A DNA stretch of 64,000 nt from a virus: IMG/VR virus record IMGVR_UViG_3300029845_000007, one strand, 5' to 3'. Below are positions 1,452 to 63,142 of this stretch, in pieces. Each line of letters begins with the position of its first letter. Positions within the stretch are counted from its first letter, which is position 1. The translations under genes and the position numbers were made by a program. The notes beneath the pieces are model-generated. The model was not told the DNA's origin and did not search any database. It was given only the letters and a program-made list of their open reading frames with translations.

Positions 1452-2786
1452 TTAGTTCAAGACTAGTTGGTCATTATCAACTGTCTTAGAATTATTACCT
1501 TTACTATTGATAATAACAGTCCTTTTACCAGTAGTTTGCGCTGCGGCAGTTCTAATAGATAGAACTTTTTGTTTATTAACAGCCATACCAACAAGACTAG
1601 CATAATCGCCACCAGTAAACCTTAGAAATGCTTTAAGTAAATCATCCTGCATACGAGCATCAGAATCAACTTTAGCTTCGTCTAACATATAAGCTGTATT
1701 ACCTTCACTATCAACAGGAGTAGACACATACTTCAAGAAGTCTTTGCGACTAAGCATTACTTTCTTTCCGTCTTTGTTACATTGGATTTGTTCAGGAATA
1801 CTATAACCTAATAGTTCGCCTTTGCTAATAGTCTTTTCTACATTATCCCAATATGCTTTTTCTTCAGCAGCAGCAGCAGCTTCTTTAGCTTCTACTTGTG
1901 CTTTCTGTTCAGCAAGTCGAGATTCATATATGCTATCAACAGCTTCTTTAGATTCAACAGCAGTATCATAAAGAATACCAGCGTTCTTACAATAGTCAAT
2001 AAATTTGTTTACGTCTCCTTTCTTACCGCTAAGTTTCCATTCTTCACGAATGAAAGTAGCTTGTTGTTCTTCGTTATCTTTACTAACAGTAATCTGACTT
2101 CTATCAGGTATTTCTACGAAGTCATCAAGAGTACCATTAAGTTTAAGATGATTAATAACTTGTTCTACTTGAGGATAAGTTTCAAATAAGTTATTAATAG
2201 CAGCAGTTTGAGCTTCTTTAACTCTACTCTGAACTACTGTTTCAACATAAGCAGCAATGCCTTCTTCATTATCATCAAATACGATAGGATTACCGTTTTC
2301 ATCTTTAAAGTCAGAACCGAAACGAGTTTGTAATTGGTTAAGAACACTTGGTTCAGAACCATTTTGAGCGATAAGTTCAGCAAGTTCAGTAGCAGTACGG
2401 AATACAGTTCCGTCAGCAGCAATAGCATTACCTTCAGCATCAATAGTATAATCTACACCGTCTACATTAATAGTATCACCTTCTGATAACTTAACTTCCC
2501 CCATAGAGGAGTCTTGTTGCTGATTATCCACTTGACCTTGCTGACCTTGATTTCCAGTATTACCATTACCGTTATTAGCATTAGTATCAGGATTAGTATC
2601 AGGATTACCATTACCATTACCTTGTTGACCTTGTTGATCTTGTTGTCCAGCACCTTGTTGTCCCTGTCCGGTAGTATTACCGTTATTACCAGAGCCAGCA
2701 CCTTGACCTGCACTACCAACAGTAGATATATCATCTATTTTAGTAGTACTTAAATCGAGAGAATCATTATTATTAAAAGTTGGCAT
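1452..2786 (-). CDS. Scaffolding-like or head-associated protein. It has a Q/G/N-rich low-complexity N-terminus and a coiled-coil acidic C-terminal half.
   Basis: 444-aa ORF between the putative portal and the capsid gene. Disordered GQGQQGAG/NGNGN tract. Contains one copy of the dispersed C5 motif at 2494-2522. Confidence 0.35.
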   Translation of the reverse strand: MPTFNNNDSLDLSTTKIDDISTVGSAGQGAGSGNNGNTTGQGQQGAGQQDQQGQQGNGNGNPDTNPDTNANNGNGNTGNQGQQGQVDNQQQDSSMGEVKLSEGDTINVDGVDYTIDAEGNAIAADGTVFRTATELAELIAQNGSEPSVLNQLQTRFGSDFKDENGNPIVFDDNEEGIAAYVETVVQSRVKEAQTAAINNLFETYPQVEQVINHLKLNGTLDDFVEIPDRSQITVSKDNEEQQATFIREEWKLSGKKGDVNKFIDYCKNAGILYDTAVESKEAVDSIYESRLAEQKAQVEAKEAAAAAEEKAYWDNVEKTISKGELLGYSIPEQIQCNKDGKKVMLSRKDFLKYVSTPVDSEGNTAYMLDEAKVDSDARMQDDLLKAFLRFTGGDYASLVGMAVNKQKVLSIRTAAAQTTGKRTVIINSKGNNSKTVDNDQLVLN

Positions 2787-3082
2787 AATAAATATGTTTT
2801 AATTATTACTTTCAAGTCAAATGTAGTCTAATAATATAAGAAATACAACTCTTGCTAGTTTGAATACCTTACTATTAGGTTTAGAAAAGCCTGTATTTGA
2901 ATTTAAGTAATATAAGAGTTAAATAGTATCAGCTAAAACGAACGTTCAACATAGGGCAAAAGAATAAGCCATTTTAAGGCTTGCTACGGCATTTTAATGC
3001 TTTATAATACAGTTCATCTCTTTAAGGGGGAAAATTCAATAGAAGTCAAAAAAATGCGGTCTACGTCAATCTTACGGGTACG

Positions 3083-3109
3083 AAAAACCCTACGGAGACA
3101 TCCGTAGGG
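3083..3109 (-). terminator. Rho-independent terminator after the putative portal gene.
   Basis: Top strand reads aaaaa-ccctacgg-agacat-ccgtaggg. On the minus-strand transcript this gives a perfect 8-bp stem with a 6-nt loop followed by UUUUU. Confidence 0.6.
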
Positions 3110-3157
3110 CACGTCTGAATCATAGAGAAAGGTATATAGCTAATTATAACTTAGTGT

Positions 3158-5853: not shown

Positions 5854-5855
5854 AA

Positions 5856-8153
5856 TTAATAACGTTTACGATTCCAAAAATTTTCTTTTTCTGTTTGAAC
5901 TCTTTGTCTATGTTCAAGTTGCTTTTTAGCAAACTTATCATTAGCAGCCCATTCAATACCTCTAACAATCATTTCTGATACACGGTCAAAGTTACCAGTA
6001 TTAGACCATTTCTTTAACTCTAGTACCGACTGATAATCATATATAGTATGAAGAACAAGCATGTCACGTCCGTCTTCAAACTTCCCTATGGGGGAATACA
6101 ACATTTCCTTCAACATACGCAGACCGTCAAGTTTCACTGTCTCACTACTAATATCATAACCAATAGTATTAACCTTCTTACTATTAATATTAGTGTCCCA
6201 AAGATGAACAGGATGATAACCTAGATACTTAACAGCTTTCCACTTCTTAAAATTACTTACTGTTTCACCACGATTGATTTCAACATTAGTTGTACCAAGA
6301 CAATTATAAGTAACTGCAAAGTAATAACATATTCTGTCTGCCTTTTCTAGTTCATCAGGACGACCATAATACACAGCACATAGTCTAGGACGATAACCAT
6401 TATATATACAGGGATTCATCCATACTTTAATACTATTATGAGAATGTTTGTTAGTAAGCTCTTTTTTATCTTTATCAATACCAACAGGGTCATAACTAAT
6501 ACTATATATTCCCGGAGGAGTACCTTTAGTCAACTGACCAGTTTTCTTATCTACATATTCAACTTTAATAGGATTAAACCACTTACGAATACAACCTTCG
6601 GGGTCTTCATTAGAATGACGAGGAACATTCTTAATATAATCAAAGAAGTCTTTTCTATATACACCACCAGTTGCAGCAATACGTTCATTAGGAATAAACT
6701 CAAAGTTTTCAGAATCATATTCCACAAACTTACCGTCTATATAGAAGTTATACCTATTAGACATCTTTAGCTCTTGTTCCCATTCATCTAGTATCTCACT
6801 ACTAAATATATTCTCACTTACAGAACTAAATGATTCACTAGGCATATTAGCATATTGTCCACAATAACTAATAAACTTAGCAAATGATTTACTTTTAGCT
6901 TTTTCAATAGCACGTTCTTCTTCGGCTATCTGAAAACCTAAAACTATATCAGAATTACCGTCATCATCAAGAGATGTAAGAGTAGCAATCTGATTATCAT
7001 CACCAATCTTATAACCTTCAAGTCCCCAACAATAAGGTTTAAAATAACCACATACTTCCGGTCTACTATCTTTATCCCATACATTTTCAAATGCCATAAA
7101 GTTTCTACCTCTAGGGTCATAGAAGTTCTGTTCAAATGTAACCCAACCAGCATTAGCTTTACCAGCAGTACCCCAAGCATTAAGAAAACCAGTAGTAACA
7201 GAACCTGTCTTTAGTGTAGGTTCAGTAACATCCATAAAATCATCAAAGTTTTCAAACTCTGACATTTCCTCACACTTAATTTCTCCGGCATCTTTACCGA
7301 CAGCGGCAGAAGGATTATTCTTAGTAGACACAGATATACAAGCACTATTCCAACTATTATCATCAATAATGGCTGTACTAGGGTCTTTATAACCTAAGAT
7401 AAAATCACTAGCATCAATCTTAGCTATACCTCTTACAAATGGTGTATTAGATTCATAGAAGATAATCTGTTTCTTCATAAAGTCTGATAAACCACCTGAC
7501 TGAACTAAGAACTTGTTATCACTAGCTGCATGAATAACAGCACGATTAGGAGTAAGATTAATAAAGTTTGCAGAACCAATAGCTTCCATATAACTAAATC
7601 CACCACGACGAGTTTTATCATTTATAAGGAATAAACCATTATCTCGACAGAACTGTTTAATCAAGAAGTACCACCATTGACAATCTATGAATCGTGGAAA
7701 TCCTCTTATCTTACGTCCAGTAACTTTACCTTCTTCAACACGAAGTGTTTTAGTATCTAGTTTAAGAATACGTCCATAATTGATAAAGTTATAATGTTCA
7801 CCAGTAATATAAACCTCTTCTATCTCACCAGTTCTAGTATCCATAAGACATGGAGCTTTAAAACCTACAAGTCTACGAAGAGTTTCTTGTTTACGAAAGT
7901 TAGTATAAGGCATACTATCTACTGCAAACTTAGTATAAACCCCATCTTTCTCATAAGCAATAGCAGCAGGACGAAGAAGCTCTGTATTAACAAATCTCTT
8001 ATTTTGGTCAATGTTCATTAAGAATCCTCCACTTTCTCCTATTAAGAAATGGTCAAATGGGTCTTTATATCCAAAGTCACTAGCATGTTTATACTTCTTT
8101 CCTTTATCTTCTTCCATGTAATACATGAAAAATGGATATTCAGACAATTGCAT
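5856..8153 (-). CDS. Putative terminase large subunit.
   Basis: 765 aa. Glycine-rich P-loop-like segment (DKTRRGGFSY) in the N-terminal half. C-terminal acidic motifs (SLDDDGNSD, ISYDPVGIDKD) compatible with an RNaseH-like terminase nuclease. Located immediately upstream of portal. Confidence 0.5.
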   Translation of the reverse strand: MQLSEYPFFMYYMEEDKGKKYKHASDFGYKDPFDHFLIGESGGFLMNIDQNKRFVNTELLRPAAIAYEKDGVYTKFAVDSMPYTNFRKQETLRRLVGFKAPCLMDTRTGEIEEVYITGEHYNFINYGRILKLDTKTLRVEEGKVTGRKIRGFPRFIDCQWWYFLIKQFCRDNGLFLINDKTRRGGFSYMEAIGSANFINLTPNRAVIHAASDNKFLVQSGGLSDFMKKQIIFYESNTPFVRGIAKIDASDFILGYKDPSTAIIDDNSWNSACISVSTKNNPSAAVGKDAGEIKCEEMSEFENFDDFMDVTEPTLKTGSVTTGFLNAWGTAGKANAGWVTFEQNFYDPRGRNFMAFENVWDKDSRPEVCGYFKPYCWGLEGYKIGDDNQIATLTSLDDDGNSDIVLGFQIAEEERAIEKAKSKSFAKFISYCGQYANMPSESFSSVSENIFSSEILDEWEQELKMSNRYNFYIDGKFVEYDSENFEFIPNERIAATGGVYRKDFFDYIKNVPRHSNEDPEGCIRKWFNPIKVEYVDKKTGQLTKGTPPGIYSISYDPVGIDKDKKELTNKHSHNSIKVWMNPCIYNGYRPRLCAVYYGRPDELEKADRICYYFAVTYNCLGTTNVEINRGETVSNFKKWKAVKYLGYHPVHLWDTNINSKKVNTIGYDISSETVKLDGLRMLKEMLYSPIGKFEDGRDMLVLHTIYDYQSVLELKKWSNTGNFDRVSEMIVRGIEWAANDKFAKKQLEHRQRVQTEKENFWNRKRY

Positions 8154-8164
8154 AATCTATATAA

Positions 8165-8659
8165 TTATTTTAATAATACGACAACAAGAATAGCTAGCAC
8201 ACTTGTACTAGCTATAAATCCATTACGTTGTTTTTTATATCTCTTAGACTTTTTATACTCCTTATTAAGATTAGTAATAGCTTCATTACCTATTAACGTT
8301 ATCCTTCTTATTTCTTCACATTGCTTAGATATAACAGAATCCTGCAAGTAGCTATCTTGAACTTTTAATTCATATAACTTCTTGTAGGATTCGTATTGGT
8401 TTTTGTACTCTTCTGAAAGTATTAACTTAGCATTGGCTATTCTTAATACTTCTTTATCTAAGCTCCGCTTCGCTCCGCTATCCCCCATAAAGGGGTGTGA
8501 TTGCTGTAAACTATCTACCTTCGTCTCTAGTCTCTTGATTCTTAATTCTGACTGGTTTTGACACAAGATATATGAAGCGTTCGAGGATAGCAATACTATC
8601 AGTATCACTAATCGCTTTATTAAATTCTTTCTCATACTGATTAGTATTATTAAGAGCAT
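8165..8659 (-). CDS. Hypothetical coiled-coil protein with a C-terminal TM anchor.
   Basis: 164-aa ORF whose 5' region overlaps the 3' end of ORF 8511-8846 in another frame by 149 bp. An extended copy of the GC-rich dispersed repeat (8461-8510) is embedded in it and encodes ...HPFMGDSGAKRS... Confidence 0.3.
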   Translation of the reverse strand: MLLIILISMRKNLIKRLVILIVLLSSNASYILCQNQSELRIKRLETKVDSLQQSHPFMGDSGAKRSLDKEVLRIANAKLILSEEYKNQYESYKKLYELKVQDSYLQDSVISKQCEEIRRITLIGNEAITNLNKEYKKSKRYKKQRNGFIASTSVLAILVVVLLK

Positions 8660-9471: not shown

Positions 9472-10470
9472 TTATACAAATAAATTCATTTGTTGTTTCT
9501 GACTTCCATTAACAGTTTGATAACGAATATTAAGCATAGTATCTATTTCAGGTTCTAACCTAGATATTTTATACCATTTAGCTGTTTCTGTCCTACTTTC
9601 ATCAATATGAAAACCGTCTTTAAATCTTTGAGGTCTACCATATTGGTTAAGTATAAATGGAACTTCAATATGACAAAGAGCTAAACCTTTACATGGTAAA
9701 CCAGTAATAAGATGAACCATTTTAGCATATAAGTTTAATTGTAAACTATATGTAGTTCCATTACAATTAGGAAGACCACCAAAAGGTGGAAGAAGAACAT
9801 CTTCAGGTTTATGTACCCATTCATCTGTTTCTTGAACAGGTCTAACACTCTTATCTTTCTTATAATAACCTGCCTGAAATCTAAGACCAGTACGATTAGT
9901 TTTCCAATCTAGTATAACGAATCCGTCCTCTCTTATAGGCAATATATCAATAGTACCACTAACTAAATACTTCGGAAGAAAAGCTCCTATCTCTGAATAA
10001 ATCTTATAATCTCTTTCAGTATAGAACTTAAATACTTTATATATTTCTGGGTATTTGTTTTCGGTATGGTCAATAAAAGCATCAACATCAAGAAGTTTAG
10101 TATGACTATCAACAACATCTAAATCAGCAACAGTAACCATTTGTTTACTCTCTTGCTTATTAAGATATTTAATAGCATTAAAGAACTTACTATTTTGACG
10201 AATACCTTCTTCAAAGCTATTATGATAAACATTACCCATATCACAAGCCTTGTCTCTTATCTTATCCCATTGATTCTTTATATCTTTAATAGAAGTATTT
10301 TCTTCTTTAGCTTTATATTTAGCCCAATAATTAGAATCGAACTTAGGAACATAAGAATGAATAATTGTAGTAGCACTAATATAAGAATTACCACAATTAT
10401 CTGTATACTTATGAGTAGGTTCATCAAAGTATAACTTCGTTTGTTTATATTCAGATTTTACAGGTATCAT
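9472..10470 (-). CDS. Cas4/RecB-like PD-(D/E)xK exonuclease with a putative Fe-S cluster.
   Basis: 332 aa. N-terminal YFDEPTHKYTDNCGNSYISATT resembles the YqaJ/Cas4 N-terminal motif with one Cys. GTIDILPIREDGFVILDWKT is a D...ExK core. Three C-terminal Cys (LPNCNGTTY...GLPCKGLALCH) match the 1+3 Cys arrangement of Cas4/AddB. Confidence 0.5.
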   Translation of the reverse strand: MIPVKSEYKQTKLYFDEPTHKYTDNCGNSYISATTIIHSYVPKFDSNYWAKYKAKEENTSIKDIKNQWDKIRDKACDMGNVYHNSFEEGIRQNSKFFNAIKYLNKQESKQMVTVADLDVVDSHTKLLDVDAFIDHTENKYPEIYKVFKFYTERDYKIYSEIGAFLPKYLVSGTIDILPIREDGFVILDWKTNRTGLRFQAGYYKKDKSVRPVQETDEWVHKPEDVLLPPFGGLPNCNGTTYSLQLNLYAKMVHLITGLPCKGLALCHIEVPFILNQYGRPQRFKDGFHIDESRTETAKWYKISRLEPEIDTMLNIRYQTVNGSQKQQMNLFV

Positions 10471-11186
10471 TTTGTACTCTCGTATTTCCCCCGTAAAGGA
10501 GCGTTGACAATTGTATCACTTACTAATCCTAGCTCTCTCTTTTGAGCCTCTACTTGAGCTTCCAAATCACTAGCATCTTTTGCAGACATAGACATAGTAA
10601 CAACCTTACCACCTCTAGCTTTCTTTTGCTCTATTTCAAGAGCAGCAGCTTGTTTAGCTTCACCTAAAGCTTTAATTTGATTAGGAATGATATTAATAAT
10701 ACCATTTAGTTTTGTCACTAAATCAATAACTGGTAAAGCATCTTCGGCTTGTAAACCAGAGTTTAACTTATTAGTAAGTTGCTCACTAATAATATTTGCT
10801 GCACGAGAACTATTATGAACAGCTCTAAGAATACTTTCAAGAGCTTCTCCTGCAACACCCATTTTATCTTCATGATATCTATCAATAAGACGAAGAATAA
10901 GAGCATCAGGATTCCAATCAGCAGGAAGACCATAATTAGTCTTTGCAGAAGCTAATGCTTCAGAACGACTATATCCCATTTGATTAGGTGGAGATTTAGG
11001 GTCGGCTACATAAAAGATAACTCCGGCTTCTTTAATATACCGAAGTTTATCCTCACTATTATCACGAAGATATAATTCTCTTACATCTTTATCCTGTATC
11101 TGATAAACGTTAGGAGCATAGGGATAACCTTGCTCATTAACACTAATCATACCACTTAAATCCAATGGGGAAATCTTCGCAATCAT
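10467..11186 (-). CDS. Hypothetical protein.
   Basis: 239-aa ORF with start/stop overlaps with both neighbours. Its C-terminus contains a dispersed-motif copy (10486-10501) encoding NAPLRGKYE. Confidence 0.5.
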   Translation of the reverse strand: MIAKISPLDLSGMISVNEQGYPYAPNVYQIQDKDVRELYLRDNSEDKLRYIKEAGVIFYVADPKSPPNQMGYSRSEALASAKTNYGLPADWNPDALILRLIDRYHEDKMGVAGEALESILRAVHNSSRAANIISEQLTNKLNSGLQAEDALPVIDLVTKLNGIINIIPNQIKALGEAKQAAALEIEQKKARGGKVVTMSMSAKDASDLEAQVEAQKRELGLVSDTIVNAPLRGKYESTK

Positions 11187-15960: not shown

Positions 15961-16000
15961 GCTCGCTTTTCTCCCCCATAAAGGAGCGTGATTGCTGTTA
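15938..16000 (+). repeat. Extended intergenic copy of the GC-rich dispersed element.
   Basis: gctggtctagtcccgctcgcaaagctcgcttttctcccccataaaggagcgtgattgctgtta. About 50 nt closely resemble 40807-40856, and its 3' half resembles 8480-8510. Confidence 0.7.
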
Positions 16001-19070: not shown

Positions 19071-19391
19071 ATGGATAAGAAAGAATTTACTAAATTGTTT
19101 AAAGAGTTACAGAAGATACAACTTAGTCTATTGTATAGTACTAAACTCTCTAGTGACCTTTATACTAATTGCAATCTTAATAATACTTCTTATATTAGTA
19201 TGTATCTATTTGTTCTTGATATTAATAGAAATATTGATGAAACACATAGTTACAATCTTTATAGCAATGATAGTATTGATAAGAATAGAGCTGTTGTAAA
19301 TGAAATTAAGCAAAAGGTTAAACAATTCACAACTCCTTTAAGGGGGAATAAAGCGAAGCGAAGCGGAGCGTCAGATACTCCAATTAAGTAA
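19071..19391 (+). CDS. Hypothetical protein.
   Basis: 106-aa ORF. Its C-terminus is encoded by an inverted extended copy of the GC-rich repeat (19335-19370), giving ...TPLRGNKAKRSGAS. Confidence 0.35.
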   Translation: MDKKEFTKLFKELQKIQLSLLYSTKLSSDLYTNCNLNNTSYISMYLFVLDINRNIDETHSYNLYSNDSIDKNRAVVNEIKQKVKQFTTPLRGNKAKRSGASDTPIK

Positions 19392-19478: not shown

Positions 19479-19853
19479 ATGTACTTGAAAGTATTAGTGT
19501 TAAACTTGTTAGAATGGAAGAAAGGAGACGTATTCCTAGTTATGCCGAAATTAAACGAGTTTAAACAAGATAATGGTAAGCTCATTGTCACGACTGGTAA
19601 ATGTCTAGTCTGTGGTGATGAGCTTCTTGTGTTTGGTACAGATGATATTTATATCTGTCCTAAGTGTAAAGAAATATTAGATGCTGATAATTGTCTAGTT
19701 CTTGAAACAATGTTTGTTGAAGATGATAGAATAGTTACTGCAAGAAATTGTATTGTTCCTAAAGAACAAATGCATACTAATGTTCCTATTATTTGTATGC
19801 CTTCTGATGAGTTTAATAAGTTATACGAAATATATAAAACTAAAGCTAATTAA
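19479..19853 (+). CDS. Zinc-ribbon protein.
   Basis: CLVCGDE...CPKCKE four-Cys motif. An alternative start at 19542 is preceded by AAAGGAG. Confidence 0.45.
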   Translation: MYLKVLVLNLLEWKKGDVFLVMPKLNEFKQDNGKLIVTTGKCLVCGDELLVFGTDDIYICPKCKEILDADNCLVLETMFVEDDRIVTARNCIVPKEQMHTNVPIICMPSDEFNKLYEIYKTKAN

Positions 19854-19854
19854 T

Positions 19855-20106
19855 ATGATTGTAGATTTAAAACAATGTGTTAATCCTGATAGTACTTTTG
19901 ATGTATATTTTGAAGGACTTAAAGCTGTTATTTCTCATGATTTATGTGTTAATACTTATTATTGTATTATCGTAGATGTTCATAGTGATAGATGTTGTGA
20001 AATTACTCCATTACCTAGAATTATGAATACTGATAAATATAAGATATTCCCCCGTAAAGGAATGTGTTGCGTACAGTATAGTGTTAACCAAATAGTCAAA
20101 CCTTAA
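19855..20106 (+). CDS. Hypothetical protein (84 aa).
   Basis: This is the ORF track's 19753-20106 ORF trimmed to the in-frame ATG at 19855, immediately after the stop of the upstream gene. Contains motif copy 20047-20066. Confidence 0.4.
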   Translation: MIVDLKQCVNPDSTFDVYFEGLKAVISHDLCVNTYYCIIVDVHSDRCCEITPLPRIMNTDKYKIFPRKGMCCVQYSVNQIVKP

Positions 20107-23089: not shown

Positions 23090-23102
23090 AAAGTATAAGT
23101 AT

Positions 23103-25377: not shown

Positions 25378-25611
25378 ATGGATATAGAAAAGATATGTAT
25401 AGCTAATCTTGGAAAAGAGATTATGTATGGTAGACTTAAAGGAATGATAGTAGGTTATGATACTATATTAAAATATTTAATCATTTCTTTTACTAATAAC
25501 TATGGTTGGAACTTTTTAATAGATAATAGTGTTATTCTATTAAATAGTCCTCTTAATCATAGTTATGTTCTTATTAATCCTGAATATTATAAAGGACAAC
25601 TTGTCTTATGA
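25378..25611 (+). CDS. Small hypothetical protein.
   Basis: 77 aa from ATG 25378. The track's 25366 start uses TTG inside the PolB stop region. Confidence 0.35.
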   Translation: MDIEKICIANLGKEIMYGRLKGMIVGYDTILKYLIISFTNNYGWNFLIDNSVILLNSPLNHSYVLINPEYYKGQLVL

Positions 25612-54315: not shown

Positions 54316-57300
54316 TTAACTACATACGAAACTAAGCTCACCAGTGTCAAACAAATGCGTCACAATAGCCTTTTGTCGATTATTCAATCCCTCAATCAGA
54401 CTATCGAAATTATCGACTTGACGGTAGTTATCACTTATACTACTATCTAAATCTAAGTCTATATCAGGAATATCAAATACATCATCAGTAGGAACGCTAA
54501 CATCTTCCTCTGCTCTATCAAAAGTATCGTCATGAGTAACAGTAGAAGTACTAGCTGTATCACTAGTTTCTAATCCAATAGTAGATAAACGATTACGAAC
54601 TTCTCCAAGTAATGTATTATCTATTTGTCCTATCTTACCTATTAATTCTACTAAAGCATCTACTATTTTAGTAAATAGGTTGTTTGATTCAATAGTAGGA
54701 TTAGAATCATACTTAATTCTAGCTAGTAATCTAGCAAATGTGCGATTAGTAATAGCTTCGACTACAAACTCTTCAATAGCAACAGCTCTAGGTTTACTAC
54801 TATTTAAGAAATCTCCATACTCATCTATTAGACGAGAATCTTGATTAATAAAGTTAGCAAACTTATCGTATAAGTCTCCGAATGATTGTTCTATATTAGC
54901 ACGTTCATCATTAAGTAGATAATGTACACCTTCATGTATAAGAGTAAGAACTCTACGTTCAGGAGCAAGACTATTAAAACGATTACTAAGAGTAATAGTA
55001 TTACCACCAGCGACTATTCCTGCAAATCTACCTTTTTCACCTACTGTTTCAATATCAGGACTAAGTTTAATACCAGCAGATTCTAATGCAGATACAACAG
55101 ATAATAGATTAGGATTATCAGTATTAGCTTGTGCAACTTCCATAAGAGTACCTATTTGAGGAACACTGTCTTGACTAGCAAGTGGGTCAGGTACAACTAC
55201 GGGAGACACAGTTTGTTGCCCCTTTATGGGGGAAGTAGCGGCGTTAGCCGCGTCAGTACGACTAGCATTGCGACTAGGATTCATAAGGGTAATAGTCCTA
55301 TTATAAACATCACCAACATAATTAAAGTTACTAACAATATTACCTTTACTATCAGTAACACTTCCTAAATCAGTAACCAATACTCCGTCCTTAGCTACAA
55401 ATTCTTCATAACTACTATAACCAGTATCAAACCATTCATCTTGAAGTATATTAGGTATCTTAGCTTGTAACTTACCGCCTACTACTCTAAATAAACTAGA
55501 TTCACCACGAATAGCCGAATTAACAACATTACGAGTAAGTAAAGCATATACTTCTTGTAACATTTTACTAAAGTTACCATGATTATTAGTAGGAACAAAA
55601 CCATTAGGCATACGAGCCATAAGTCTTCTAGGTTTAAGTTCACCAGGAATAGAGAAAGCTACATTTCTATCTTTAAGATTAAAATAAATAGTTGGTGCAA
55701 CTCTATTAATAGGTATTAAAGCATGACCTCTTACTTCATAACCATACAATACTTTCTGTTTACCTATATATTTAGATACTTCTTCTAATAGTTGAGTATG
55801 AAGATTTTCATTGCCTTGTAAAGTAGCATCTAATAAAGAATGAAGTAGTTTATCTAATCCTTCATTAAACCTCTTAGTATATTCAGTAGCACCAGTTTCA
55901 CTATTACTCATAGTATTCTCACGACTAGGAACTGCAATAAGTCTTCCTTCTGAATCTTTAATAGTCATACCTACTACATTTCTAGGAATACGACTAGCCG
56001 CAATAATAGTATTGGTTTTAATATCAGCTACTCCACCGTCAACTCCTACTACTAAACGATAACCGTCAGTTGCTTCACTAGTAGTAACATCTCCAAACTT
56101 ACGATATATAGGATTACCTTGTTTATCTTTAGCATAAATAACACTACCTGAACTTGTACGTCCAACAACTAGACGTTTCTTTTTAGACTTAGTTTTACTA
56201 ATAGAGGACTTTAAGTTATTAATGTCCGTATAAGACTTCTTGAGTTTATTCATCCAATTAGTTAACGAATCGTTAACAATGGTACTAAAATCAGACTGAT
56301 TAACATTAAGAGCATTATTAAAGAATATAATACTATTAAGATGTCTAATCCTATCTAATAGATTAGTTTGAGTATCACCGAATAAACTAGTTAGATTCTT
56401 CCAGTTCTTATTCTCTTGTAAAGCATTAAGCTGATGTCCGAATGTTCCTTCAACTTCAGGGTTATTACGAACACGATACAAACGACGTATATTATTAAGT
56501 GTTTGTACAAACTCTTTAGCACTTTCATCTTCATTACTAATAATAGATTGGAGTTGCGTTATAAAATCTATATTACCATTTCTAACAGTGTATCTCCAAC
56601 CTTGATTTATAACTTCAACGTTCCCATTATTATAATTAATTTTAGGAAACTCACCTATCTTAATTCCACGAGATTTAACGATAAGATTATCGTTTTCATC
56701 TAGTTCTACATTTACTGTATCATTAGTCTTTAACTGACCGATACGAGAGTAAACCTTACTATCATTTAGATTAACTAGATTAAAGAAGTAACCATTATCT
56801 TTAGTATTCTGTCTATTCTCTGCAATAGCATTTTCTAATGTCTTACTTGCAGACTGTATAATATCAGAAGGCGTCTTAACTTCTGTATCAACATTAACTA
56901 TCTTACCGTTTATTATTTGACGATTAGCTAAAACTTTAATATCATTATACAGATTAATAGCTCTAGGATTAAGTTGTTGTAAATATATCATCATATCATT
57001 AAGACTAGTAAAAGTTTTACCTTCTACTTCATTGCCTTGTATCTGATTATACAAGTCTATGATAAGATTGATTTCTTCTATACGTTGACGCTGACCTTCT
57101 AAATCATTATCAGATATAGCTGATTCAAGAACTGTATCATCAGTTCTAGTATCTTCTTTCTTAGAAGTATCTACAACAGTAATATCTCCAATAGCAATAG
57201 CTGCATTAAGTTCTTCAATAGTGACATCAGCAATTATATTGCCTTTAGCATCTAATCCGTCAATACTTACATTTCCGAATCTACTAATACGAATATCAAT

Positions 57301-60300
57301 ATCGTTAACTTTAACTGGTTTACGAGATACGTCACTAAGACTTGCAAAAGGATTTACTATCGTAAATTCAAGATTACCTATATTAGACTTATTTACAATA
57401 CCTGAATTAGATTGAGATACTACTTTGTCTAACGTTTCCTTTAATTTCTTCTCTTTTGCAGTCTTTGGTTTAGGTCTAGGCTTAGGCTTAACTTCTAGTT
57501 CTTCTTGAGTCGTCGCTTCGCTCCTCCCTTCCCCCATAGAGAAGGTTTCTTGCTGATTCTCCGGCTGTCTTTGCTGTACTTCATTCTGTATAGCTAACTT
57601 ATTTCTTCTCTTAGTAATAGCTTCTCTTAGATTACTTATTTCATTCTTACCATTCTCTGAATTAGTTAAAATACTAACAGCATTAGATAAACTCTTATTG
57701 CTAGTATTCTGACTTTCTTCATCAGTAAACGCATTATCTAGTGCTTTCTCAAGATTACCAAGCTCTTCTTCATTAGCCATATTAACAAAGTCATTAAGAT
57801 TCTTCTTTGCTGATTTAACTAGATTCTTAGCTGCATCTTCTAATTCTTTCTTACGAGTATCTTCAAATTCCTTAGCTTGTTCATTAGTAGTAATAATACG
57901 AGAACGATAATTATCTCTACGAATTTCATCAAGAAGTATCTGTCCCATATTATCCATATACTCTGAATTAATATTATGAACTTGTTTAGCAAGAGTACCA
58001 AGACTAAAGTCTTTACCTGCCTGTTTAAACAGAGCTACATCACTTTCATCAAGTTCTTCTATTTGTTTCTTGATTAAGTTGTTCTGTTCTTCGCTACCTT
58101 CTATTCCTAATGCAATATTCTCTACACTACGAACATTATCTAGAAACAGACTTTCCATAGAACTTAAACCTCTTCGTAAGTCTGTAACCTTAGATTCAAT
58201 TATTCGCGATAAATCAATATACTGACTAGCTTGCGCTCTATCTAAAGGATTGTTACTATTCTTTAGACTATTATAAGTAGACATTACTTCTCTACGATAC
58301 TGTTCTAATATACCTAATTGCATACGATTCTTAGCCATTGGATTAAGAACTTCATTAATAGCCGGTATGCTATTCTCTAATTGAGATTGAATAGTATTAA
58401 GTCTTTCTACTCGTTTATTTAATAAGTCCGCTTCTTGTGCATTAACTATATTCTCTGATATAGCAACATCTAGTAAAGCATCATCAATATTAGCACTACG
58501 TAACGCAGTAGAATAATTGACATATCTATCGAGAACAGTACGCATAGTTTTCTTTAATTCTTGCGTATCTCTATCGTATTCAACATCATCTACAAGACCT
58601 GAATCAACTAGTTTCTTCTTTAGTCTAGGGTCTTCAATATAATCTTCAAGTAGTTCATAATTACCTGAACGAATAGCATTTAAAGTAAGAGTAGTAGTAA
58701 ACTTCTCTTTAGCCGCTGCCCGCAAATCTTCTTGTTCTTCAGGGCTAACCTTAGTATAACGAGTAGTACCAACTGTTGGGTCTTGACTAACAGTACCGTC
58801 ATCTAAATAAGTAATAGGATTACCATTAGCATCACGTTCTATTTGATATGGATTCTCACCATTATCAATAATCTGCATCTGACGAGCATACTCATTGAAT
58901 ACCTGTTCACGACCATTTATTTCAGCAATACGTTGTTTCTCTTCTACATTACCACCTTTACGATTATTAATAGCTGACATAGTACCACCAAAAGTAATAC
59001 CACCAATAACTCCCCAAAGTGCAGCATTGTATAATTGAGGATTCTGCAAGTACTTCTCTATTCTATCCATAGATACAGCACCATTGTATTGTTCAGCTTG
59101 ACCTAACAAATAACGACCGTATAAAGTACCTTCTTCTTGACCTACAAAGTTAATAGCTTCTTCAATACCTTCTGTTAATTCAGATAATAGTAGATTCTCA
59201 CTAGAATTAACAAAGCGATTTATTTTACCTGCAAAATCTTTAATAGTACCTTTTGCCGCTTGACCTAAAGTTTGACTAGCAGATTCAACACCAGTAGAAG
59301 CTATTCTATCGAGAGCTTGATTCTGTGAATAACGAATACGTGGAGTAATAGCACGATTGACTTGTCCTATTGCTTTATTAACAGCACGTAACTGCATGAA
59401 ATCAAAGAATACGTTACCTGCGTTATAACCAAAGTTACGCATAGCTGCCTTATCTGCAACTATAAGAGCAGCTTCTTCTTTAGTTCTTTCTTTAGCCTCA
59501 CTTGCAATATCAGGATTGTTATCTAACCAATTCTGAAACTCTTCGTCAGACATTCCAGTAAATAGAGACAATGCTTCACCTTCTATTTGTTCTGCAACAC
59601 CACGAGCTTCTTGATAATTCTCACCTAAACGCATACCAATAGCTGTAATACCGTCATTAGCTAATATCTTTAATCTATTAGCACGATATACATTATCTAA
59701 TTTAGTAGCCTTCTTTGCCCAATTCATTGCACGACTTACTTTAGAACTACTACGTCCTAATGCTGCAACTCCTTTACCAACAGCTCCAACTCCTTTAGTT
59801 AAAAGAGTGCCAGGAATCATTAAAGATAGAGAACTAGCAATACTAGGAACTTGACTAAAGAACCAACCTGAAAAGTCATTCATATCAAATGCTTTATCAG
59901 GGTTCTCACGATATATAGGAAATAAATCGTCACGAACATAATCAGATATAGTATCACCAGCTCTTGTAATAGGATTACTAAAAGGTTTATCATCCCATAA
60001 TCCGGCAGTAGCTAAATCTATTAGCATACCCATACCTCCAACAGTATCACCAATAACAGTACCAATAGTTTGTCCTAAAGCATTACTTGCCTGTTTCCAA
60101 GCTGATTGATTCTTAGCACGTAGAGTTTCTAATTCTTCTCTACTTTGATACCTATTAGGTTCAGCACCATACTTAGCTAATGAATGATAATCTTCCTCTG
60201 TACCAGTAAACACTTCTTTACCTGTAAGATTACGAAACATAAAGTTGCCTTGTGCAGCAACATCAGGTTTATATTTAGTAACAGTAGGAACATCATTAGC

Positions 60301-60372
60301 CATATTAACAGAATTAGCCCCACTAGTTAGTGGAGCTTTTTCTACTGATATATTATCAAACATGTTTGGCAT
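54316..60372 (-). CDS. Giant virion/ejection protein (2018 aa) with an HExxH zincin-like motif.
   Basis: LTLIHEGVHYLLNDE near the C-terminus. Coiled-coil and Gly-rich regions. Three dispersed-motif copies lie inside (55214, 57511, plus 60559 in the neighbouring gene). Confidence 0.5.
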   Translation of the reverse strand: MPNMFDNISVEKAPLTSGANSVNMANDVPTVTKYKPDVAAQGNFMFRNLTGKEVFTGTEEDYHSLAKYGAEPNRYQSREELETLRAKNQSAWKQASNALGQTIGTVIGDTVGGMGMLIDLATAGLWDDKPFSNPITRAGDTISDYVRDDLFPIYRENPDKAFDMNDFSGWFFSQVPSIASSLSLMIPGTLLTKGVGAVGKGVAALGRSSSKVSRAMNWAKKATKLDNVYRANRLKILANDGITAIGMRLGENYQEARGVAEQIEGEALSLFTGMSDEEFQNWLDNNPDIASEAKERTKEEAALIVADKAAMRNFGYNAGNVFFDFMQLRAVNKAIGQVNRAITPRIRYSQNQALDRIASTGVESASQTLGQAAKGTIKDFAGKINRFVNSSENLLLSELTEGIEEAINFVGQEEGTLYGRYLLGQAEQYNGAVSMDRIEKYLQNPQLYNAALWGVIGGITFGGTMSAINNRKGGNVEEKQRIAEINGREQVFNEYARQMQIIDNGENPYQIERDANGNPITYLDDGTVSQDPTVGTTRYTKVSPEEQEDLRAAAKEKFTTTLTLNAIRSGNYELLEDYIEDPRLKKKLVDSGLVDDVEYDRDTQELKKTMRTVLDRYVNYSTALRSANIDDALLDVAISENIVNAQEADLLNKRVERLNTIQSQLENSIPAINEVLNPMAKNRMQLGILEQYRREVMSTYNSLKNSNNPLDRAQASQYIDLSRIIESKVTDLRRGLSSMESLFLDNVRSVENIALGIEGSEEQNNLIKKQIEELDESDVALFKQAGKDFSLGTLAKQVHNINSEYMDNMGQILLDEIRRDNYRSRIITTNEQAKEFEDTRKKELEDAAKNLVKSAKKNLNDFVNMANEEELGNLEKALDNAFTDEESQNTSNKSLSNAVSILTNSENGKNEISNLREAITKRRNKLAIQNEVQQRQPENQQETFSMGEGRSEATTQEELEVKPKPRPKPKTAKEKKLKETLDKVVSQSNSGIVNKSNIGNLEFTIVNPFASLSDVSRKPVKVNDIDIRISRFGNVSIDGLDAKGNIIADVTIEELNAAIAIGDITVVDTSKKEDTRTDDTVLESAISDNDLEGQRQRIEEINLIIDLYNQIQGNEVEGKTFTSLNDMMIYLQQLNPRAINLYNDIKVLANRQIINGKIVNVDTEVKTPSDIIQSASKTLENAIAENRQNTKDNGYFFNLVNLNDSKVYSRIGQLKTNDTVNVELDENDNLIVKSRGIKIGEFPKINYNNGNVEVINQGWRYTVRNGNIDFITQLQSIISNEDESAKEFVQTLNNIRRLYRVRNNPEVEGTFGHQLNALQENKNWKNLTSLFGDTQTNLLDRIRHLNSIIFFNNALNVNQSDFSTIVNDSLTNWMNKLKKSYTDINNLKSSISKTKSKKKRLVVGRTSSGSVIYAKDKQGNPIYRKFGDVTTSEATDGYRLVVGVDGGVADIKTNTIIAASRIPRNVVGMTIKDSEGRLIAVPSRENTMSNSETGATEYTKRFNEGLDKLLHSLLDATLQGNENLHTQLLEEVSKYIGKQKVLYGYEVRGHALIPINRVAPTIYFNLKDRNVAFSIPGELKPRRLMARMPNGFVPTNNHGNFSKMLQEVYALLTRNVVNSAIRGESSLFRVVGGKLQAKIPNILQDEWFDTGYSSYEEFVAKDGVLVTDLGSVTDSKGNIVSNFNYVGDVYNRTITLMNPSRNASRTDAANAATSPIKGQQTVSPVVVPDPLASQDSVPQIGTLMEVAQANTDNPNLLSVVSALESAGIKLSPDIETVGEKGRFAGIVAGGNTITLSNRFNSLAPERRVLTLIHEGVHYLLNDERANIEQSFGDLYDKFANFINQDSRLIDEYGDFLNSSKPRAVAIEEFVVEAITNRTFARLLARIKYDSNPTIESNNLFTKIVDALVELIGKIGQIDNTLLGEVRNRLSTIGLETSDTASTSTVTHDDTFDRAEEDVSVPTDDVFDIPDIDLDLDSSISDNYRQVDNFDSLIEGLNNRQKAIVTHLFDTGELSFVCS

Positions 60373-60376
60373 ACGC

Positions 60377-63142
60377 TTACTTCATTAAGTCGTTCATTTG
60401 ATTAAGTATAACTTGACTAGGAGTTTCTCCCGTAAGACTAGAGTACATTCGATTAAAGAATTGAAATACTTGTCTCTTAGTATCTATATCTAATTCATTT
60501 AGATTACCAGTAGCACCTGCCATTATCATAGCCTTCTGCATAAGCGGACGAGCAATCACTTGTTGCTCTTCTATGGGGGAATTTGCAATAGAACCATTTC
60601 TAGCACTAATCAAATCTATATCTTCTTTAACAGGAGCAAGAACAGCATTAGCTTGATTGTTTTGAAGCATACGTTCAAATAACTCACTTTCAGTAATTTT
60701 AATTACAGGAGAATCACTAGCATCGAGTATTTGATACAGGTTGCCATCAGTAACAGCTGAATAACTACCGTCTCCAAATTCACTATCTGATAAACGATAA
60801 CCTCTTTTAAGAGCGTTATTGTACTTAATAGAATTGAGAGTGTCCCATGCTTTAACAGCAGGCAAAGATTTAAATCTCTCTATCTCATCATTAAGTACAG
60901 CACCTGTAATCATATAGTCTCCGGCTACTGCGTTCTGTATTCTATCTTCCATATCAGAATCAGGATTCTTACCAACATTCTTACCTGTCTTTACAGTATA
61001 AGGAATATTTAAGAATATACCATATTCACCAGTAGAAGCAGAACTACACCAACCGTTATTAATATTCTTCTTCTTAATTTGTGCTTGAATAGTTTGCATG
61101 ATAGCATCTCTATCTCTACTATCTTCAACAACTTCAAGAACTCCTTCTTCATTACGTTTCTTAATAACTATACTTCCTGGATTAGCAATACTAACCATAT
61201 TCATAACCCGTTCATTATAGTCTTTTAGTTGTTCAGATTCAAAGCCCTGACCTAAAGCAACAACATGAGGCGGTAAGTCAAATACCGCTAAGTCTACATA
61301 AGTAGGAGGAAGAGTTTTAGATACTCTTTCAGTCGCAGCATTAGATATTTGTGCAGCTTTCTCATATACATAGGCTATTGAGTTTTTATCACTTCCGGCA
61401 GTTGTTATCTCTCCACGACCAAGTGCTCTAAAGCCAGCCATAAATGCAGTGACTTCACTACCATAATATTTATTACCATGATAGACTTCATCAGCCCTAG
61501 TAAATGATTTAGGTTCTACACCTTCATTAGTAAATCCAATAGGATTAACTTTTAATACTTCACTTATTTCAGGAGCTAAACGAGTATAAGCATCTTTACT
61601 AATACGAATATATTCTTTATCCCCTATTTTAGAGAATGATACATCTTGTCTAGTAAGACCCATATCAACTCTTAGTTTAGATATAATAGCAGCTTTACTA
61701 GCTTCGTTAATAGGATTAACAAGAACTGTATCGAAACTATTACCTTGCGAATCTGTGAATAACTTGTTCATTCTATTAGCATATTCACGTTGCATAGGAT
61801 TATTAGTATCTGCCATATTTCCATTACTAAGTCTCTTACCTAAGAAATCAGATGCAAACTGTTCATCTTGTGTAAGATGTCCTTTCATAGCATCTAATCT
61901 ATTATTAGCGTTATTAATACCACTATAATAATTATATGCTTCATCCAATGCTTGCTTCTTAGCTGTATCAGACAGATTGCTATTATTAGCAATACTTGAC
62001 CTTAATTGAGCATACGCTTTATCTAATGGAACAGATTTAGATATTCCATAAGTAGCAAACATATTGGCTAATTGACTATTAAGTGTATTCAATTGTGACG
62101 CAACCTTAGCAGGAGTATCAGGTTCTACTTTCTCTTTACCACCAACTGTTTGCATAGAAGGTAATAATTCAGGTTCTTTACCAGTCTTAGGTTTAGCAGC
62201 AGCTTTACGTACGGCAGCTAATAGATTAAATCCTAATTCAGGACTAATTCTACTTTCAGTTCTACGATAAGCAGAAGCAGCATATCTAGGAGCAAATAGA
62301 TTCTCTTCAAATTCTTTCTGCGACATAATAGTTCCGTCAGGCTTAGTAACAAGATTGTTCTTATTACCTTTATTAGCTTTCCAAACATTTACTTTATAGT
62401 CTTGTTCAAGAGAAGCACGAGCACCAGGAGTTTCATTTAATGCAGCTTCAAATGCAGCACGTATCTTCTCCTTAGATAACTGTTGAATACCACCGGAAGT
62501 TTTAAGATAAGGAACATCACCAGCAACAATATTTCCTTGACCTTCTTTAAGATTACCTTCTGCATCGCCCCATACTAACTGTTCACCTGAACTAGAATCA
62601 ACACCAACAGTAGACAATACTTTCTGATATAAAGTATTATAATCTATTTGTTCAACAGGACGATAATTAGGTTTGAATTGATTACCGCCTATTACTCTAC
62701 CTGTTTCATCTATTTGGTCTTGATAATTATATTTGTTCTGTTCCAATGTATAAGCCTTAACATCTCCATCATAAGCATCACTATTAGTAACTTCGTCTTG
62801 GAACTTTTTAAACTCTTGTTGATAACGCTCACGACCAATAAGTCCTGGATTACTAGCAACTTCTCCGGCTAATCTTCTTGCAGTAGTTAATGCAGTAGCA
62901 TAACTACCTTCTTGAGCACTTGCTTCTATTTGAGCATTAACATCTCTCGAATATTTATCGAGCCACTCATTTTCAGCTTCGTTTAATTGCTTATTAGCAA
63001 GAAACGTTTTAATCTGATTACTAGTTTCAATAGCAGTATCATGTTTCTGTTGTAGAGTATTTAACGTACTATTGTAAACATCTAAAGGAGCGGCAACCCG
63101 CTCCCTCTTTTGATAACCAGCTGTTCTAATATCTATCGGCAT
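60377..63142 (-). CDS. Large virion protein (921 aa), unknown function.
   Basis: Long ORF upstream of and co-directional with the giant genes. Contains motif copy 60559-60586 encoding ANSPIEEQQV. Confidence 0.5.
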   Translation of the reverse strand: MPIDIRTAGYQKRERVAAPLDVYNSTLNTLQQKHDTAIETSNQIKTFLANKQLNEAENEWLDKYSRDVNAQIEASAQEGSYATALTTARRLAGEVASNPGLIGRERYQQEFKKFQDEVTNSDAYDGDVKAYTLEQNKYNYQDQIDETGRVIGGNQFKPNYRPVEQIDYNTLYQKVLSTVGVDSSSGEQLVWGDAEGNLKEGQGNIVAGDVPYLKTSGGIQQLSKEKIRAAFEAALNETPGARASLEQDYKVNVWKANKGNKNNLVTKPDGTIMSQKEFEENLFAPRYAASAYRRTESRISPELGFNLLAAVRKAAAKPKTGKEPELLPSMQTVGGKEKVEPDTPAKVASQLNTLNSQLANMFATYGISKSVPLDKAYAQLRSSIANNSNLSDTAKKQALDEAYNYYSGINNANNRLDAMKGHLTQDEQFASDFLGKRLSNGNMADTNNPMQREYANRMNKLFTDSQGNSFDTVLVNPINEASKAAIISKLRVDMGLTRQDVSFSKIGDKEYIRISKDAYTRLAPEISEVLKVNPIGFTNEGVEPKSFTRADEVYHGNKYYGSEVTAFMAGFRALGRGEITTAGSDKNSIAYVYEKAAQISNAATERVSKTLPPTYVDLAVFDLPPHVVALGQGFESEQLKDYNERVMNMVSIANPGSIVIKKRNEEGVLEVVEDSRDRDAIMQTIQAQIKKKNINNGWCSSASTGEYGIFLNIPYTVKTGKNVGKNPDSDMEDRIQNAVAGDYMITGAVLNDEIERFKSLPAVKAWDTLNSIKYNNALKRGYRLSDSEFGDGSYSAVTDGNLYQILDASDSPVIKITESELFERMLQNNQANAVLAPVKEDIDLISARNGSIANSPIEEQQVIARPLMQKAMIMAGATGNLNELDIDTKRQVFQFFNRMYSSLTGETPSQVILNQMNDLMK

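Follow-up and report, generated by a model that had tools for sequence, protein, structure and literature searches.

A dispersed GC-rich motif array with lineage-specific dialects in Jahgtovirus and other Intestiviridae phages

The motif and its copies in a Jahgtovirus segment

A 64-kb stretch of DNA (64,000 nucleotides; hereafter the window) from the IMG/VR virus record IMGVR_UViG_3300029845_000007, with a G+C content of ~32%, carries many scattered copies of a 16-base GC-rich motif, which is the subject of this work. Identities of 92% to uncultured phage cr107_1 and 89% to Bacteroides phage crAss002 place the window in Jahgtovirus (Intestiviridae, Crassvirales), the genus of both. Judged by orthology to crAss002, the minus strand of the window holds a block of capsid, portal and terminase genes, the plus strand holds replication and early genes from 16 to 40 kb, and the minus strand again holds three giant genes associated with the virion RNA polymerase (RNAP) from 41 to 63 kb. 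No tRNAs and no Rfam matches were found in the window. The comparisons below sample four Intestiviridae lineages: Jahgtovirus (the complete genomes of crAss002 and cr107_1), Rudgehvirus jaberico, prototypical crAssphage (represented by CrAssphage LMMB) and cr8_1 (Obtuvirinae).

The consensus of the motif in the window is TTCCCCCRTARAGGAG, that is, T-T-C5-R-T-A-R-A-G-G-A-G, in which the C5, TA, A and GG positions vary little or not at all. Allowing at most one mismatch to the 13-base core pattern TCCCCCRTARAGG, we found 19 matches, 11 on the plus strand and 8 on the minus strand, against 0.05 expected from dinucleotide-preserving shuffles (n = 100), none of which reached 19. The motif is also the source of all the most frequent 11-mers and 12-mers in the window. 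Overall there is one copy per 3.3 kb; on each strand the motif recurs about every 6 kb, cutting across genes. The original prediction had proposed a dispersed family in both orientations, to be abandoned if a shuffled control gave comparable counts. The family is confirmed in the window, and the shuffled counts are nowhere near comparable.

With up to two mismatches allowed, the window contains 23 matches. These are exactly the 23 main copies that had been predicted, in the orientations given for them, and yet the predicted list does not stand in full. Three of the two-mismatch variants (3017..3032 on the minus strand, 4922-4937 on the plus strand and 37723-37738 on the minus strand) have no conserved counterpart in crAss002 and probably arose by chance or have decayed, and two further "G4 variants" (48286 and 50533) match the motif too poorly to be counted. 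A fourth variant with two mismatches, TTCCCCCATAGGGAAG, lies on the minus strand at 6081..6096 in the terminase gene (5856..8153, minus); it is identical in cr107_1 and crAss002, and this identity suggests that it may be a functional variant.

The first four strong copies are all on the plus strand. One, TTCCCCCATAGAGGAG at 2496..2511, lies in an open reading frame (ORF; 1452..2786, minus) orthologous to crAss002 gp11, where the G-run strand is sense and is read as SSMGE; this copy is conserved in cr107_1 and crAss002, and Rudgehvirus and crAssphage have orthologous copies. Another, ATCCCCCATAAAGGGG at 8480..8495, falls at the start of a small ORF (8165..8488, minus) and has a GC-rich block, CGCTTCGCTCCGCT, on its 5' side at 8466-8479. 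In cr107_1 a small gene (6916-7239) is annotated as starting at the ATG contained in CCTTTATGGGGGA, the motif in its G-run form, and the counterpart of this gene in the window is the ORF just named; a start codon inside the motif may be an annotation accident or a real start. The copy TTCCCCCGTAAAGGAG at 10486..10501 occupies the 3' end of an ORF (10467..11186, minus), just upstream of the next gene start, and is read as PLRG, while CTCCCCCATAAAGGAG at 15971..15986 is intergenic, with a 5' block, GCTCGCAAAGCTCGC, at 15952-15966. Throughout the capsid, portal and terminase block the strong copies share one orientation, with the G-run strand sense, in both the window (4/4, positions 1-16000) and crAss002 (5/5, positions 1-28700). 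Rudgehvirus and crAssphage show this bias less strongly, and cr8_1 does not show it; one possible cause is that forks leave an origin in the divergent intergenic region preferentially in one direction.

Among the replication and early genes, TTCCCCCTTAAAGGAG lies on the minus strand at 19333..19348 in an ORF on the plus strand (19071..19391), giving PLRG, and is preceded on its own strand by (CGCTY)x4 at 19352-19370. The plus-strand copy TTCCCCCGTAAAGGAA at 20047..20062, in the ORF at 19753..20106 (plus), is the sole sense copy in the second frame and is read as FPRKG. The gene for DNA polymerase B (23016..25373, plus; orthologous to crAss002 gp66) contains TCCCCCCGTAGAGGAG in antisense at 25094..25109 (minus), giving SSTGG. 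The helicase gene (25608..27074, plus) contains TTCCCCCATAAAGGAG at 26126..26141 (plus), read as SPIKE, and the gene for a DnaG-family primase (30226..31359, plus) contains TTCCCCCTTAAAGGAT in antisense at 31043..31058 (minus), giving PLRG; both positions are kept in four Intestiviridae genera. TTCCCCCATAAAGGAG recurs on the plus strand at 32189..32204, again as SPIKE, in the ORF at 31863..32375 (plus), and on the minus strand in intergenic DNA at 34109..34124. TTCCCCCATAGAGGAG recurs at 36569..36584 (plus) in the Gam-like gene (36072..36845, plus), read as SPIEE.

Two copies form an inverted pair, at 40840-40855 (plus) and 40875-40890 (minus), each with a GCTCGC-type block 5' on its own strand (40822-40836 and 40895-40912). 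Across 40840-40890 the pair could form a hairpin of 16-18 bp (fold z about -6.3) with no T-run. Close by are three canonical terminator-like sites, each a hairpin plus T-run (40308-40339, plus; 40720-40755, plus; 41379-41348, minus), where shuffles give 0.7; they mark the convergence of the plus-strand early genes and the minus-strand giant genes. The inverted pair is separate from all three, and we rejected it as a terminator.

The remaining copies lie in the giant genes. The virion RNAP gene (41409..54128, minus) carries TTCCCCCATAAAGGAG in sense at 46428..46443 (minus), read as SPIKEQQ, and TTCCCCCGTAAAGGAG in antisense at 51497..51512 (plus), giving LLYGG; the latter position is kept in Rudgehvirus and crAssphage with an offset of 0-1 nt. 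The gene at 54316..60372 (minus) has TTCCCCCATAAAGGGG in sense at 55219..55234 (minus), read as SPIKGQQ and kept in position in Rudgehvirus, and TTCCCCCATAGAGAAG in antisense at 57529..57544 (plus), with the block CGCTTCGCT on its 5' side at 57514-57522, inside coding sequence. This copy falls at amino acid 944; at amino acid 945 in crAss002 and 877 in crAssphage a comparable GC-rich block precedes the motif, which makes these copies candidate orthologues by position. Finally, the gene at 60377..63142 (minus) carries TTCCCCCATAGAAGAG in sense at 60566..60581 (minus), read as SPIEEQQ.

Constraint, spacing and flanks

The motif copies use five of the six frames and also occur in intergenic DNA. 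Among the eight window copies with the C-run strand sense, seven give SPI(K/E)x and one gives FPRKG, the third sense frame having a TAA or TAG stop. Copies with the G-run strand sense use all three frames (PLRG, SS(M/T)G and LLYGG). Within genes, sense and antisense copies are about equally common, and many copies are found far inside ORFs, including the giant genes of 6-12.7 kb. The primase copy is read as PLRG or PLQG in Jahgtovirus and Rudgehvirus and as ILYGG, in another frame, in crAssphage. A protein motif is ruled out by the five frames, the intergenic copies and this frame switch. The earlier claims that the element is read in several frames and orientations, and that the constraint acts on the nucleic acid, are thus borne out by a formal tally.

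The genomes of crAss002 and cr107_1 have 28 copies apiece, and these occupy sites orthologous to the window copies. In natural populations of Jahgtovirus, crAssphage and the cr8_1 lineage, mismatches affect 0-4% of the core against 5-9% of the flanks, which makes the core 3-10x less variable, while the R positions flip freely between A and G. We conclude that the motif core is under purifying selection. Conservation extends across genera: of the crAss002 copies in alignable protein segments, 6/14 have a partner copy within 0-3 nt in the orthologous gene of Rudgehvirus, 4/9 in that of crAssphage and 2/8 in that of cr8_1, against a chance rate that we estimate at ~3.6%. The partners almost always have the same orientation relative to the gene, and several sit at the same codon-level position despite protein identities of only 40-60%; for the primase and SNF2-helicase genes, all four genera retain the copy. 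Other copies have moved between genera, with the total number steady at 23-31. The alignment of relatives proposed with the prediction therefore finds copies at orthologous sites with a core less variable than its surroundings, and we conclude that the motif reflects an old constraint at the level of DNA.

Three features on which the original prediction was silent are the strict spacing of copies on the same strand, the polarity of their flanks and the dialects of other crAss-like genera. In the window, same-strand gaps are 2.0-10.7 kb, with a coefficient of variation (CV) of 0.38 on the plus strand and 0.27 on the minus strand (both P = 0.002). In the complete genomes random placement would give a same-strand CV of ~0.9, and the observed values are 0.32-0.56 except on the plus strands of both Jahgtovirus genomes (1.03 and 0.75), where a long stretch has no plus copies (~28 kb in crAss002). 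Plus and minus copies number 11/17, 14/14, 17/14 and 12/11 in four genomes. Across five genomes, no two copies in the same orientation lie within 1.5 kb of each other, where 28.5 such pairs are expected (P = 4e-13). For opposite orientations, 34 pairs lie this close where 29.2 are expected, as if the two orientations were placed independently, and such copies can be as close as 27-120 bp. The orientations appear to alternate along the genome (Fisher-combined P = 2e-4, four Intestiviridae), which follows from the same-orientation exclusion. Spacing tracks distance and not operon structure; copies fall inside giant genes wherever spacing requires.

Since only copies in the same orientation are excluded, orientation appears to matter; otherwise opposite neighbours would be redundant and would be excluded as well. 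Even arrays on each strand with same-orientation exclusion are what is expected of a strand- or direction-specific process that is needed on both strands. Each orientation would then serve its own strand or direction, and nothing would be gained from another copy close by in the same orientation; this reading alone explains why opposite neighbours are not redundant. It had been held that the lack of orientation bias argues against Chi-like sites and primase sites. That step is unjustified, each strand having its own even array.

The flanks are polar as well. Directly 5' of the motif on the C-run strand, and almost nowhere else, are GC-rich blocks of the form (CGCTN)x2-4 or GCTCGC-N3-6-GCTCGC, which read AGCGG/GAAGCG on the other strand. 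They precede 6/19 copies in the window and are also seen in crAss002 and crAssphage, with none in Rudgehvirus; the GC-rich 5' extensions noted earlier are therefore real. On the 3' side, the first ~10 nt after the AGG are purine-rich, and the zone from +10 to +40 on the C-run strand is pyrimidine- and C-rich and G-poor in four genera (p <0.0001 to 0.018; in the window, Y = 0.62, p = 0.0002). This skew is independent of gene orientation, and a weaker excess of C over G extends to about +80. The 3' side also evolves faster. Divergence in the 40-60 nt flanks of Jahgtovirus is 0.127 on the 3' side and 0.079 on the 5' side (20/24 sites, p = 0.0007), and the corresponding values for the cr8_1 lineage are 0.082 and 0.045 (p = 0.015). 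On the C-run strand, polymorphisms on the 3' side show a C/T-biased excess, 144 vs 87 in Jahgtovirus (p = 0.0007) and 120 vs 82 in crAssphage (p = 0.078).

Single copies do not fold beyond shuffles with RNA or DNA parameters, whether over +/-15 nt or over -2..+70 nt, and folding with DNA parameters gave a mean z of ~0 on both strands in four genera. Since only the inverted pair folds, and single copies have the same fold energies as their shuffles, we rejected local hairpins, among them a short CCTY/GGGG stem and a pairing between AAGGAG and the pyrimidine-rich zone.

Dialects across Crassvirales

Each sampled lineage writes the motif in its own dialect. Rudgehvirus jaberico has 28 copies of TTGnTGTAAnMT-CCCCTGTARAGGAG, prototypical crAssphage has 31 copies of tAkACY-CCCCGTRGAGG-ATGGAr, and cr8_1 has 23 copies of AGCCS-CCCCGTAAAAGGTATGTA; in each of these three genomes the dialect is the top over-represented word. 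The Intestiviridae dialects share the core CCCC-N0-2-R-T-R-R-A-GG. In the linear cr8_1 record, a short duplicated end overlap falls exactly on a divergent motif pair (positions 42, 113 and 92655). The exact Jahgtovirus 16-mer occurs in multiple copies in IMG/VR only in contigs 80-98% identical to crAss002, and contigs unrelated to Jahgtovirus have single chance matches. A scan of IMG/VR with the 14-mer Rudgehvirus core returned mostly unrelated single matches and was unusable for population analysis.

Outside Intestiviridae the picture differs. The CCCC...AGG core was not found anywhere in the genome of crAss001 (Steigviridae, MH675552). That genome has a different dispersed 9-mer, CTTCTGGAG, with 27 exact copies on both strands, 13.6x the order-2 Markov expectation. 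No same-strand pair of this 9-mer lies within 1.5 kb, its orientation flips at 20/27, and its pyrimidine-rich flank is 5', not 3'; this 9-mer may form a similar array in Steigviridae. The Cellulophaga phage phi14:2 has no over-represented word comparable to the Intestiviridae motif, and the motif array is therefore not universal in Crassvirales. Because phi14:2 is the only crAss-like phage with mapped transcript ends and lacks the motif, its promoter data are uninformative on the motif.

Some 30 places have changed in concert between lineages while the core was kept, which argues for co-evolution with a reader. Crass002 infects B. xylanisolvens and Rudgehvirus infects B. cellulosilyticus; since the dialect thus differs within a single host genus, a phage-encoded reader is the simplest assumption, and we infer from these genomes that the reader is probably of this kind. 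As for which gene might encode it, BLASTP between crAss families was too insensitive for phyletic patterns to discriminate among candidates, and Pfam searches of the small ORFs neighbouring copies gave nothing useful.

Candidate functions and comparison with known systems

Taking these features together, we consider it likely that the array is a polar, orientation-specific signal at the level of DNA with a phage-encoded reader. The mechanism that we favour, tentatively and at less than even confidence, is that the copies are strand-specific sites at which strand synthesis starts, from a primer or from a nick. A phage-encoded protein would read the motif as a linear sequence, and synthesis of the strand bearing the C-run would start there. 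In one version an RNA primer or transcript would begin at the GGAG just after the TARA block; in the other a site-specific nick would be made and its 3' end then extended. Each strand would have a start roughly every 6 kb, and any fork, running in either direction in a headful-packaged genome, would find one on its discontinuous strand. The role would thus lie in discontinuous or strand-displacement replication. The enzyme might be the DnaG-family primase, the giant RNAP or a nickase, and the phage DNA ligase would seal the products.

What favours a start of strand synthesis is the architecture of the motif, which resembles a start signal, combined with a one-sided, fast-evolving, C/T-biased zone. 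A lineage-specific 5' block is followed by TA(R)A and then by the purine start GGAG, and the T3 and T7 promoters look similar in this respect. The Syn5 promoter, ATTGGGCACCCGTAA followed by GG, is a phage RNA-synthesis start signal of parallel architecture (PMC3950665). The position of the 3' zone suggests that it lies where a new strand would begin or an old strand be displaced. Each of the five genomes crAss002, cr107_1, Rudgehvirus, crAssphage and cr8_1 carries genes annotated as a DnaG-family primase and as a DNA ligase. No ligase appears in the retrieved portions of the annotations of phi14:2, which lacks the motif, or of crAss001, which lacks the CCCC...AGG core. The giant RNAP homologue of phi14:2 transcribes single-stranded DNA (phi14:2 RNAP paper).

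Several points weigh against this mechanism. Any strand discontinuity or RNA 5' end at the copies is a prediction from sequence. Known primases need only ~3-5 bases, and we know of no phage that needs a priming signal of 16-26 bases. In crAssphage the divergence of the flanks goes in the same direction, higher on the 3' side, but is not significant, and base composition accounts for part, though only part, of the C/T excess. The spacing could also arise because close direct repeats are deletion-prone and selected against in a phage that encodes RecT and an exonuclease; by our own arithmetic, a hard-core exclusion of ~2-3 kb would by itself give a CV of ~0.5-0.65. The known nick motifs of T5, tf and phiKMV are one-stranded and unevenly spaced (PMC11780129), the virion-RNAP transcripts of phi14:2 have no common upstream motif (phi14:2 RNAP paper), and the lack of any such word in the phi14:2 genome means that the signal is not general to the order.

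Could the motif instead mark phage DNA as self? An orientation-dependent signal resembling Chi or a DNA uptake sequence would be met by a phage-encoded tracking enzyme (a PD-(D/E)XK exonuclease, an SF1 or SNF2 helicase with a nuclease, or the terminase), which would be stopped, attenuated or licensed there; phage DNA would be spared or correctly processed, and host or rival-phage DNA would not. We hold this to be unlikely, while noting that lineage-specific dialects fit kin discrimination, that the AGCGG/GAAGCG of the 5' blocks resembles Firmicutes Chi sequences, and that exonuclease, RecT and Gam-like genes are annotated in crAss002, cr107_1, crAssphage and cr8_1 (in the Rudgehvirus record only an exonuclease and a recombinase are so labelled, and the gene in the Gam position is annotated Gp157). 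Known Chi sequences have 5-8 bases and are read by the host, and we know of no phage-encoded Chi reader. Independent, bounded arrays would suit a machine that enters a circularly permuted genome from either end, and pac-type headful packaging is reported for crAss002 (PMC8042965); the distribution also matches, point for point, the published description of the uptake signal sequences (USS) of Pasteurellaceae and DNA uptake sequences (DUS) of Neisseriaceae (PMC2817400). This idea does not predict a pyrimidine-rich, faster-evolving zone on one side only, and identity breakpoints show no excess at the copies, a result that also led us to reject the motif as a recombination hotspot or mosaic boundary. 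Promoters for a phage-specific RNAP activity, whether of the giant RNAP or of the host RNAP with a phage factor, would tune or time expression from both strands through internal sense and antisense RNAs. The promoter-like architecture with its purine start, the polar downstream composition and the C/T excess on what would be the non-template strand all agree with this, and concerted change of copies between lineages is familiar from T7-group promoters. In addition, 7/28, 10/28 and 10/31 copies lie outside ORFs of at least 100 aa, above the intergenic share of the genome by our estimate. We nevertheless give promoters little credence, given the antisense copies and those deep in ORFs of 6-12.7 kb, spacing that follows distance and not operons, and single intergenic copies that have no consistent orientation to the downstream gene (12 vs 6 in our count; an apparent preference of 9/10 in three genera was dropped when cr8_1 was added). 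Moreover, the phi14:2 virion-RNAP transcripts lack a common upstream motif, and its middle and late genes use host-type promoters. The original exclusion of ordinary promoters is upheld by the same antisense copies.

The leading idea of the original prediction, an architectural, condensing or packaging protein bound to double-stranded DNA, for example the conserved IHF/HU-like pair, would also be suited by an asymmetric site of 16-26 bp, which fits an IHF-type footprint, and by ~23-31 sites per genome. The annotations of crAss002, Rudgehvirus and crAssphage include IHF-like genes (the positional equivalents of these in cr107_1 and cr8_1 are labelled hypothetical), and one copy lies upstream of the IHF gene in Jahgtovirus and Rudgehvirus. 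Such a role seems improbable to us, for it predicts neither the one-sided polarity in composition and mutation nor the exclusion of same-orientation neighbours alone (0 vs 28.5, with opposite neighbours at 34 vs 29.2). We think it very improbable that the motif acts in RNA, as a small hairpin, a terminator, a rut-like site for Rho loading or a Shine-Dalgarno-like site: it contains AAGGAG, its 3' zone is C-rich and G-poor like a rut site, and inverted pairs form long hairpins, but single copies have no structure beyond shuffles and no Rfam match, the inverted pair is separate from the canonical terminators, orientation to transcription is ~50:50, and host Rho would not need lineage-specific 16-26-mers. 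Bacteroidota, moreover, largely do not use Shine-Dalgarno pairing, and anti-16S pairing was dropped for this reason together with the mixed orientation. Least credible, to the point of being nearly dismissed, is a selfish or miniature mobile repeat, whether like a miniature inverted-repeat transposable element (MITE) or a repetitive extragenic palindromic (REP) element or as the footprint of a homing endonuclease. A short, dispersed, multi-copy sequence whose copies in some cases share longer flanks might look mobile, but its positions are orthologous across 8-11% nucleotide divergence and partly across genera, the aligned flanks show no terminal inverted repeats or target-site duplications and are unconserved beyond the motif, and neither purifying selection on the core nor even same-strand spacing is expected of transposition. 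HNH endonuclease content, too, differs between crAss002 and the window while the copies are unchanged. Two HNH genes of crAss002 (25070-25681 and 27795-28352, beside the primase/SSB and recombinase genes) are missing from the window (30152-30226) and from cr107_1, and those genes are therefore not needed for the array. Of the roles put forward originally, then, a binding site for a phage protein and a site of nicking are still live, and the footprint of a miniature mobile element falls away, with orthologous positions, no terminal repeats or target duplications and no excess of breakpoints.

Crass-like phages dominate the viral community of the human gut, and Intestiviridae include its most abundant phage; the few isolates in culture are hard to manipulate. 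The motif offers a handle for cheap experiments, with sites known to the base, present in every sampled Intestiviridae lineage, selected and strictly spaced. If the copies are programmed nicks or primer starts on both strands, the long-known phenomenon of nicked phage genomes would extend to a medically relevant group, with a layout that suggests a function; if they are a self-recognition tag, phages would have a new means of distinguishing their own DNA from that of the host or a rival. It is possible, though doubtful, that a lineage-specific signal of 16-26 bases directing a phage enzyme to start or stop on one strand would be the first case of lagging-strand priming programmed by sequence, or of Chi-like self-recognition encoded by a phage. 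In that case signal and reader would co-evolve as dialects and could isolate related phages during co-infection. On the practical side, the dialects are a simple genus-level typing marker for crAss contigs, and the copies flag sites to preserve when these genomes are recoded or engineered.

The array is apparently an undescribed strand-specific cis-element common to the sampled Intestiviridae. As the original prediction held, we found no account of it, in literature on crAss002, the phi14:2 RNAP, the crAss001 transcriptome and the crAssphage phage-plasmid that was covered in part of the journals; there is a substantial chance that the mechanism is new. Several known kinds of element differ from it plainly. 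N4-type hairpin promoters have a stem of 5-7 bp and a 3-nt loop, and the mean fold z here is ~0 in four genera. The middle promoters of phi14:2 have -35/-10 spacing, whereas this motif is contiguous, occurs in both orientations and is absent from phi14:2. Intrinsic terminators fold and have a T-run; single copies here do not fold, and the inverted pair lacks the T-run. MITE and REP elements have terminal inverted repeats or palindromes, target duplications and variable sites, and we found orthologous positions and no structure.

Promoters of single-subunit RNAPs (T7, T3, SP6 and Syn5) are alike in being contiguous and asymmetric over 15-23 bp, with a 5' block, a TA-rich block and a GG(G)AG start, and in having copies that change in concert; Syn5 has CACCCGTAA followed by GG where the motif has TCCCCCGTAAA followed by GGAG. 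Those promoters lie between genes and point with them, whereas here half of the genic copies are antisense and inside ORFs. No T7-like polymerase is listed in the annotations of the five Intestiviridae genomes, in which no dedicated search was run; the only RNAP annotated there is the giant two-barrel virion RNAP. We know of no T7-like polymerase in Crassvirales. Chi is likewise over-represented, orientation-dependent and read by a tracking enzyme, and a bounded distance to the next correctly oriented copy is its functional point. It has 5-8 bases, is read by host RecBCD or AddAB and is skewed with replication, whereas the motif is long, specific to phage lineages and unskewed. A Chi sequence is a short word common to the replicons of one host; this motif has 16-26 nt and differs between phages of one host genus.

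The closest genomic distribution is that of USS and DUS, which are likewise non-palindromic, present in both orientations, evenly spread, paired as intergenic dyads, biased to preferred frames and peptides, and divided into dialects (PMC2817400). The match is one of distribution only, and the motif array is not a member of that class: uptake sequences are bacterial, occur ~1 per kb, are read in competence and spread by uptake bias and recombination, whereas here a lytic phage has one copy per 3.3 kb, with strict same-orientation exclusion and polar flanks. The haloarchaeal pleomorphic virus HRPV-3 has interruptions linked to a motif (GCCCA) at 27 sites on both strands of a small genome; there the strand follows transcription, which it does not here, the motif has 5 bases against 16-26, and the virus is archaeal and unrelated (PMC3384331). 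The nearest documented kind is the nick-associated motifs of phages, found in T5, in the Pseudomonas phages tf and Rembedalsseter (WACTRTGAC) and in phiKMV-like phages (PMC11780129). Like the motif described here, each is a short, asymmetric, lineage-specific word that is enriched, kept in number in distant relatives, placed in genes regardless of their function and read on one strand (PMC11780129). The present array is known from sequence alone, and it differs in layout: nick motifs occupy one strand only, in clustered sets of 4-14, whereas the Intestiviridae motif occupies both strands, in even arrays of 11-17 copies each.

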